From Escherichia coli (GTDB lineage Bacteria > Pseudomonadota > Gammaproteobacteria > Enterobacterales > Enterobacteriaceae): a DNA stretch of 64,000 nucleotides. Where the stretch lies: assembly GCF_044324785.1 (NCBI RefSeq), contig NZ_CP172127.1; one strand, 5' to 3'. Under the pieces are notes generated by a model. That model saw only the letters and a list, made by a program, of their open reading frames with translations. It had not been told where the DNA came from and did not search any database. A program made the translations under genes and the position numbers. This document shows positions 14,319 to 15,275 of this stretch, piece by piece. The number at the start of each line of letters is the position of its first letter. Within the stretch, counting starts at the first letter, position 1.

Positions 14319-15275
14319 TTAGTTAATCAGTTTATCAATCTCAGCAAGAGGTAAATTTGCCATCTCTGCAACGTCTTCCCGAGACATTCCTTTACTCAGA
14401 AGACGCTGGGCGAATTCCTGACTTACTTCCTGTGTTACTTCCTGTATTACCTCTTGTCTTACCTCTTGTCTTACCTCCTGTCTTCCTTCCTGTCTTCCTT
14501 CCTGTCTTCCTTCCTGTCTTCCCCTCTCTTCAAACCACTGCGCCAGCGTCATCATAGACTCCCCTCCCGTTTCCCTGTCTCTCACCACACCATAAAACAA
14601 ATCCGCTTGTTCAGTATGACCGCGTTGCAGCATATAGTTTTGCATGGCAACTAACTGACTTCCGCTAGTGTACCCTTCGTCAATCAGCGTGACCAGTTGC
14701 TCCAGCAATAACATTAAGTCGCGCTGGCGAATATGCTTTTGCAGTAGTTCGAGAATCGCAATCCGCCGATGTTGCATGATTTCGTCATCCGGTGTGATGG
14801 TGATATCCACCAGCGGGAAAGGGTTGTTGTAAACGCGTCGCGCCAGCTCCGGCGAGTAAAACATATCAAACCAGCACATTGAGAGCGGATAAGGTGTGGC
14901 CTCGCCCTGATAAAACAGAATCGGCACCACCAGCGGCAGCTTATCGTGATCCGCCTCCAGATGCCGATGCATGGCGGCAATAGAATAACGCATCATGCGA
15001 AAGGTCATTTTCTTATCCGGCTTGCTTTGATGTTCAATCACCACATGCAAATAACCGGGATTGCCCTGCATTTGCACGGAATAGAGCACGTCAGTGCTGT
15101 GTCCTTTCAGGCTTTCTTCAATAAAACTCCCCGACTCAAGATGCAGCGTGTCGAGGTCACACAGTTCGCGTAGCTCCGCTGGCAAATGGATATCCAGAAA
15201 GTCGCGAGCCGTTTCCGCGTGCATTAAAAATTGTTTAAACACCGCATCATGCGGTGTGGTACTCGGTGCATCCAT
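14319..15275 (-). CDS. rpnC: Rpn-family (YhgA-like, PD-(D/E)XK) recombination-promoting nuclease, RpnC/YadD-like
   Basis: MDAPSTTPHDAVFKQFLMHAETARDFLDIHLPAELRELCDLDTL... typical Rpn N-terminus; sits between panC and panD as yadD does in K-12; C-terminal tail with (RQEG/RQEV)n repeats. Confidence 0.8.
   Translation of the reverse strand: MDAPSTTPHDAVFKQFLMHAETARDFLDIHLPAELRELCDLDTLHLESGSFIEESLKGHSTDVLYSVQMQGNPGYLHVVIEHQSKPDKKMTFRMMRYSIAAMHRHLEADHDKLPLVVPILFYQGEATPYPLSMCWFDMFYSPELARRVYNNPFPLVDITITPDDEIMQHRRIAILELLQKHIRQRDLMLLLEQLVTLIDEGYTSGSQLVAMQNYMLQRGHTEQADLFYGVVRDRETGGESMMTLAQWFEERGRQEGRQEGRQEGRQEVRQEVRQEVIQEVTQEVSQEFAQRLLSKGMSREDVAEMANLPLAEIDKLIN
14412..14530. repeat. in-frame 12-bp tandem repeat (cttacttcctgt / cttccttcctgt units)
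   Basis: Direct reading; encodes RQEG/RQEV tetrapeptide repeats in the rpnC-like tail. Confidence 0.9.
14550..14569 (-). promoter_or_regulatory. internal Shine-Dalgarno (gggaggggag) plus in-frame ATG-ATG inside rpnC; candidate start of a tail-only small isoform
   Basis: Minus strand reads gggaggggagtctATGATGacgctggcgcagtgg; in frame with rpnC, would give a 78-aa product. Confidence 0.45.

Follow-up and report, generated by a model that had tools for sequence, protein, structure and literature searches.

The rpn genes of Escherichia coli are known to encode two proteins each, a long nuclease (RpnL) and a short tail protein (RpnS). Internal starts within rpn genes were first seen by Meydan et al. 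in 2019, who observed a Ribo-RET peak in every rpn gene and, at yadD, conservation of synonymous sites (10.1101/520783). In their 2023 article, Zhong et al. (PNAS; PMC10400941) reported that RpnS proteins are translated from internal starts and are antitoxins of the toxic RpnL nucleases. RpnL alone was described as toxic, SOS-inducing and DNA-cleaving, while the cognate RpnS binds RpnL and stops toxicity, SOS induction and DNA cleavage. For RpnA-S, both direct complex formation and inhibited DNA cleavage were shown. For rpnC, the article reports Onc112 and retapamulin signal, and both RpnC-S and RpnC-L were detected with a chromosomal SPA tag. Furthermore, RpnC-S was found to block the SOS induction by an RpnC-LS construct only if the numbers of four-residue repeats match (Fig. 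4D therein). Internal transcription start sites (TSS) in all rpn genes are given from published dRNA-seq, and RpnS levels exceed those of RpnL. After mutation of ribosome binding site (RBS) and ATG, the small protein was lost in the case of rpnA and of a C. difficile rpn gene. In RpnA, Met244 was exchanged for leucine (M244L). In the portions of the article available to us, knockouts of Shine-Dalgarno (SD) sequence or ATG are described for rpnA, rpnB, rpnP2 and the C. difficile gene, not explicitly for rpnC. The plasmid homolog RpnP2 (RpnP2-LS) was reported to protect against T-even phages; protection was shown for RpnP2 alone, and an anti-phage role of RpnC is a proposal. Finally, a downstream copy, rpnCSs, and variable repeats of four residues are described (PMC10400941, Fig. 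2I).

Here, we studied the rpnC locus within a stretch of 64,000 nt from an E. coli genome (contig NZ_CP172127.1 of assembly GCF_044324785.1), which we refer to as the window. The closest described system is the RpnC-L/RpnC-S pair of E. coli K-12 (rpnC = yadD, b0132), which is found at the same panC-panD locus with identical SD and ATG-ATG. K-12 RpnC-S shares the first ten residues of the window's protein, i.e., MMTLAQWFEE, but comprises 60 aa with KGIE-type repeats, whereas the window RpnC-S has 78 aa with RQEG/RQEV-type repeats and is accompanied by the stand-alone copy rpnC-Ss that K-12 does not have.

Within the family, RpnA-L/RpnA-S (rpnA = yhgA) resembles rpnC in that the nuclease domain is followed by an in-frame ATG (codon 244) behind the motif AAGGAG. 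In RpnA-S (PDB 7TH0), which folds as a helical bundle, the dimer interface is formed by the first long helix. K-12 RpnA-S differs by its 49 aa without repeat expansion, and its tail is only 23% identical to the RpnC tail with a weak profile match. The pair rpnE/ypaA (rpnE-Ss) is arranged like rpnC/rpnC-Ss, i.e., a tail-only gene that duplicates the parent's tail directly downstream of it. According to the published phylogeny, rpnE-Ss and rpnC-Ss are of independent origin (PMC10400941). In addition, ypaA starts at the methionine homologous to the internal start, whereas rpnC-Ss uses a new ATG that lies 11 codons upstream. ArcB-C, as well as Cas11d within cas10d, is like RpnC-S a C-terminal isoform produced from an in-frame internal SD and start; these bacterial genes-within-genes are cited by both Meydan et al. 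and Zhong et al. Their products cooperate or signal separately, while the short RpnC-S antagonises the long form.

The internal start, RpnC-S and its antitoxin role were thus already published between 2019 and 2023, that is, the system is rediscovered here and not new. It was pointed out by a first-pass annotation which, working on raw sequence without tools, correctly named a real internal start together with the protein made from it and the function of that protein.

The rpnC gene and its internal start site

The gene of interest is located on the minus strand. Its features are as follows.

14319..15275, minus strand: full-length rpnC coding sequence (RpnC-L, 318 aa), an Rpn-family PD-(D/E)XK nuclease (from ORF and homology)
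14655..15257, minus strand: N-terminal nuclease domain, residues 7-207 (Pfam PF04754)
14559..14568, minus strand: internal Shine-Dalgarno sequence GGGAGGGGAG (from sequence and 16S duplex energy)
14550..14555, minus strand: tandem start codons ATG-ATG, in-frame codons 241 and 242 of rpnC
14319..14555, minus strand: nested gene rpnC-S (78 aa from the first ATG, 77 from the second), putative intragenic antitoxin (from sequence and published RpnS function)

The Pfam model PF04754 (Transposase_31 / YhgA-like) is matched over its full length (model positions 1-201 of 203, E=1.6e-86), and the score for NCBIfam's Rpn family TIGR01784 is 283 bits vs. a cutoff of 52.1. The window RpnC is 95% identical to K-12 RpnC (b0132). 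The gene order within the window is panB-panC-(rpnC-Ss)-rpnC-panD-yadE, i.e., the panC-rpnC-panD context is as in K-12. Judged by the panC/panD position and the K-12 identity, the ORF is rpnC. The defence-system search with PADLOC v2.0.0 provided no model matching RpnC; its library predates or omits Rpn. When searching a collection of 15 billion proteins, the exact 318-aa RpnC was not found, and the adjacent PanC of the window is an exact E. coli protein that is present on 317 contigs.

We also compared the neighbouring 4.9 kb, which cover panB-panC and the adjacent fimbrial (usher/adhesin) region (9000..13900), with 5426 complete RefSeq E. coli genomes. Here, the best identity is 96.6%, such that no complete genome is above about 96-97%, and just 458 of the 5426 genomes cover at least 80% of the region. 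The lineage of the window, or its fimbrial-operon variant, is poorly represented among complete genomes.

Downstream of the domain lies the internal site, which reads ACGGGAGGGGAGTCTATGATGACGCTGGCGC on the minus strand (reverse complement of 14540..14570). The SD consists of two overlapping cores, namely GGGAGG 7 nt before the first start codon (ATG1, 14555..14553) and GGGGAG 6 nt before the second (ATG2, 14552..14550). Both codons share frame 0 with the 318-aa ORF, and the site is found 34 codons past the end of the PF04754 domain and 78 codons before the stop. Translation from ATG1 results in 78 aa with N-terminus MMTLAQWFEERG... (77 aa from ATG2), and the 78-aa product reads MMTLAQWFEERGRQEG...KLIN. 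On re-reading the sequence, we found the coordinates, the frame, the distance to the stop and the N-terminus given by the first-pass annotation to be all correct.

To quantify SD strength, we computed for each ATG the best duplex of its 20 nt upstream region with the 3' end of the 16S rRNA. For the internal site of rpnC, the duplex energy is -10.8 kcal/mol in both the window and K-12. The annotated rpnC start shows -8.4 kcal/mol for the window allele and -5.1 kcal/mol for the K-12 allele. The internal SD had initially been called much stronger than the one of the annotated start; it is indeed stronger, but "much stronger" is a fair description for K-12 only. As comparison set, we used all 451 in-frame internal ATGs of 48 long non-overlapping ORFs from the 64-kb window. 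The two rpnC ATGs hold ranks 1 and 2, followed by a context with -9.6 kcal/mol. That is, sorting in-frame internal ATGs by SD strength places a known case first among 451. Even among the first-ATG starts of the window's ORFs, only 1/47 (2%) is equally strong. Being the top outlier of the 451 contexts, the internal SD is not a chance occurrence.

We also checked the RNA around the site for structure. With z = +1.07, its folding is weaker than that of shuffled sequence, and no regulatory RNA structure that hides the internal SD was found. Given this lack of local structure, the internal site should be accessible. With regard to transcription, a standard sigma-70 scan of the minus strand found no internal rpnC promoter. 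The relaxed scan provided one weak candidate.

14667..14695, minus strand: weak promoter candidate TGGTCA-17-TACACT (relaxed scan, 8/12 matches)

It is located 111 nt upstream of ATG1. To consider it an internal promoter would be speculative, and we do not claim it.

The site is strongly conserved. K-12 rpnC, whose ATG-ATG is located around 147,688-147,693 of NC_000913.3, has the same 45 nt across SD and ATG-ATG as the window, and for a 101-bp query around the site, 5424/5426 complete E. coli genomes show at least 95% identity. About 30 nt downstream of the site, the rpnC coding sequence is hypervariable in length. Metagenome alleles were gathered via the start of rpnC-Ss, i.e., a pattern outside the site, which resulted in 56 loci, 51 of them with readable rpnC site. 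ATG-ATG is invariant among the 51/51 readable metagenome loci and in 10 tabulated complete-genome loci. The SD of the 51 metagenome loci reads GGGAGGGGAG in 33 cases, GGGAGGGAAG in 16 and GGGAGGGCAG in 1, and shows a one-base deletion in 1. The latter stems from a low-coverage contig and may be an assembly error. Among the metagenome alleles, the first core GGGAGG is thus nearly fixed, while the second tolerates a Glu-to-Lys change (GGGAAG).

A similar arrangement is observed for the paralogs. In K-12 rpnA, rpnB, rpnD and rpnE, the in-frame ATG is found at codon 244-245 and is preceded by AAGGAG (rpnA, rpnB, rpnE) or AGGGAG (rpnD), and the respective internal products all begin with MTIA(E/D)R. 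For all five K-12 rpn paralogs, the ATG is found within codons 241-245 behind an AGGAG/GGGAG motif, and for 4/5 its context ranks with the best internal ones. Met242 of RpnC aligns with the methionines of the paralogs, including Met244 of RpnA. PDB entry 7TH0 (Recombination-promoting nuclease RpnA) covers exactly the last 49 residues of RpnA, beginning with Met244.

This alignment with RpnA Met244 favours ATG2 as the putative start of RpnC-S, while ATG1 is favoured by GGGAGG, a core that hardly varies and lies at a distance of 7 nt. By sequence, either codon may be the start.

A disrupted allele was observed in strain BH212 (locus L009, 1..1722; NZ_CP029239.1), where rpnC is split by an IS2 element at a position upstream of the internal start. 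The remaining rpnC fragment is annotated as a pseudogene and keeps SD, ATG-ATG and the entire RpnC-S frame. By its sequence, this interrupted rpnC is a natural candidate for an "antitoxin only" allele.

Origin and role of the short tail protein

We are highly confident that the site is the internal translation start of rpnC from which RpnC-S, the antitoxin of the toxic RpnC-L, is made. The first-pass annotation had proposed a nested gene for an inhibitor isoform. This is in accordance with the published RpnS antitoxins, and the K-12 sequence is identical throughout the site. It had also suggested initiation profiling (retapamulin/Onc112) as a check; respective data for K-12 rpnC are published and positive (PMC10400941). 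We infer that the window allele behaves as K-12 rpnC does.

The proposed mechanism is as follows. A single DNA stretch would encode, within one frame, the two proteins RpnC-L and RpnC-S. RpnC-L (318 aa) would be a toxic, SOS-inducing PD-(D/E)XK DNA endonuclease. RpnC-S (78 or 77 aa) would comprise the helical C-terminal tail only, started at ATG-ATG behind the internal SD. It would be produced from a shorter internal transcript as well and should usually be in excess. Binding of RpnC-S to RpnC-L via the shared long helix with its four-residue repeats would then neutralise the nuclease. As both partners are encoded by the same DNA, any change of the repeat number would alter both at once. The result would be a toxin-antitoxin pair in which one gene lies within the other and for which a role against phages is proposed; the antitoxin would sit in the toxin's own frame, with specificity tuned by repeat number.

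To assess the predicted product, we investigated the AlphaFold (AF2) model of RpnC-S. It is all-helical (helices 4-19, 29-54, 59-65, 70-77) and of medium confidence, with a mean pLDDT of 69.6 and values below 50 within the repeat region. A Foldseek search of the model against the PDB resulted in no match with E < 0.5, and 7TH0 was outside the top 50. The best, non-significant neighbours are helix-turn-helix (HTH) domains, e.g., DeoR, KorB and TrpR-like. When searching the PDB with the RpnC tails using phmmer and profiles, only designed helical repeat proteins were matched. A direct hhalign comparison of RpnC-S and RpnA-S provided a probability of 42%, i.e., a weak tail similarity. Homology of RpnC-S and RpnA-S therefore rests on the paralogy of the full-length proteins together with the aligned start.

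Three other explanations have to be weighed. First, the short tail protein could be a proteolytic product of full-length RpnC rather than the result of internal initiation. Immunoblots with C-terminal tags cannot, on their own, separate cleavage from internal initiation, and the available text of PMC10400941 contains no explicit SD/ATG knockout for rpnC. Nevertheless, we consider proteolysis very unlikely given that initiating ribosomes were trapped at the rpnC site itself (PMC10400941, 10.1101/520783). Furthermore, the small protein was abolished by RBS and ATG mutation in rpnA and the C. difficile gene, and both the excess of RpnS over RpnL and the separate internal TSS reported in the same article argue against cleavage.

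Second, the SD-like run could be incidental to the coding of Thr-Gly-Gly-Glu-Ser and two subsequent Met, and would then at most cause ribosome pausing and yield no separate protein. GGA GGG GAG are ordinary codons, and a third of the alleles alter the second core by the non-synonymous Glu-to-Lys change (GGGAAG), such that this core is not strictly fixed. This account is extremely improbable when facing the top rank among the 451 internal ATG contexts and the recurrence of the arrangement at the homologous codon of five paralogs despite different surrounding residues. In addition, K-12 rpnC with its identical sequence has published initiation-arrest peaks and a tagged small protein (PMC10400941).

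Third, RpnC-S could be initiated internally and yet mainly be something other than an inhibitor that binds RpnC-L, e.g., an HTH DNA-binding regulator of the locus, as its non-significant structural neighbours, the HHpred similarity to HTH motifs and the transcriptional repression by many antitoxins (PMC10400941) might suggest. This is hardly conceivable given the direct complex and inhibited DNA cleavage shown for RpnA-S and the matching repeat number needed by RpnC-S, which argues for protein-protein specificity (PMC10400941). RpnC-S could have a dual role, i.e., be both antitoxin and DNA-binding regulator. We thus keep the reading of RpnC-S as an internally initiated antitoxin of RpnC-L.

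Stand-alone copy and dodecamer repeats

Downstream of rpnC, the window provides a second copy of the tail. Both copies contain arrays of a 12-bp unit.

13981..14250, minus strand: stand-alone paralog rpnC-Ss (89 aa), downstream of rpnC (from ORF list)
14415..14520, minus strand: rpnC dodecamer array, 8.8 copies of the 12-bp unit (Tandem Repeats Finder)
14083..14157, minus strand: rpnC-Ss dodecamer array, 6.2 perfect copies (Tandem Repeats Finder)

rpnC-Ss is absent from K-12 and found in only some E. coli strains, where it is annotated as "RpnC/YadD family protein" or "hypothetical protein". The TLAQWFEE region, which the first-pass annotation had taken to be shared by the 89-aa paralog, is present there after an N-terminal extension of 11 residues (MEIKTRRETRQ). 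A DNA alignment of 14220..14290 with 14540..14600 (minus strand) shows that the duplication that gave rise to rpnC-Ss took in the internal-start region. This region has decayed in rpnC-Ss, which reads ACGGAGAGAAA--CCAGGCAG where rpnC has ACGGGAGGGGAGTCTATGATG, with ACGGAGAGAAA at the SD. ATG-ATG is lost (now a CAG-GCA region), and a new ATG is found 11 codons upstream with the weaker SD AAGGGA (duplex energy -5.3 kcal/mol). That is, the duplicate has changed its initiation signal.

The arrays of rpnC and rpnC-Ss have the common 12-bp consensus unit TTCCTGTCTTAC. Within the long first helix, the rpnC array encodes RQEG (three times), RQEV (three times), IQEV, TQEV and SQEF, and residue 13 of RpnC-S is where the four-residue repeats begin. 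Copy numbers vary among strains, and the helix spacers of the alleles comprise 15 to 43 residues. The rpnC tail of the window corresponds to the type of strain E70 (locus L011) plus two dodecamer units, and rpnC-Ss to the type of strain N3 (L012), whose spacer has 35 residues, plus two dodecamer units. The window apparently holds a previously unrecorded allele pair, with each array two dodecamers longer than in its nearest sampled relative. The exact 89-aa RpnC-Ss was also not found within the 15-billion-protein collection. The absence of both exact proteins from the collection is in line with the hypervariability known from the literature and may also reflect repeat collapse in short-read assemblies.

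We considered whether the RQEV-type repeats of the window's rpnC stem from a recent gene conversion by rpnC-Ss. We found no support for this. Other strains (L011, L021, L037) also have the RQEG/RQEV tail type, the window allele is set apart from it by a simple expansion of two units, and the flanking tail stays rpnC-type.

In the window, the spacer between WFEE and KGMSRE comprises 43 residues for both RpnC-S and RpnC-Ss. In contrast, the respective spacers differ by 6-20 residues within the 9 tabulated complete genomes that have both genes. Over 57 S/Ss pairs (from complete genomes, metagenomes and the window), we find equal length for 2 pairs, compared to 2.6 expected from random pairing. 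The match in the window is thus as expected by chance; selection for equal length of RpnC-S and RpnC-Ss is unsupported, and the two lengths look independent.

It is a tentative and rather unlikely idea that RpnC-Ss is a second cognate antitoxin with an expression of its own in this strain, while being mostly length-mismatched elsewhere and maybe serving there as a donor cassette that diversifies tails by recombination. Provided that the published repeat-matching rule holds, the length match observed here would allow RpnC-Ss to inactivate the resident toxin, which it could not do in most other strains; this is speculation. If true, rpnC-Ss would be a spare antitoxin that can be switched, with repeat slippage deciding on its function.

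Among the metagenome loci, a few copies of rpnC-Ss are frameshifted or truncated (among L028, L063 and L069); these are on low-coverage contigs and may be assembly errors. Finally, one further locus (L068, metagenome contig OKZB01000164.1, ~146..181) combines the rpnC-Ss-type N-terminus MEIKTRRETRQ with a K-12-type RpnC tail (KGIEKGIQQGRQEVS...VINLI). By its sequence, this gene looks like a recombinant of rpnC-Ss and an rpnC tail, which fits the fusions and exchanges that Zhong et al. mention (PMC10400941).
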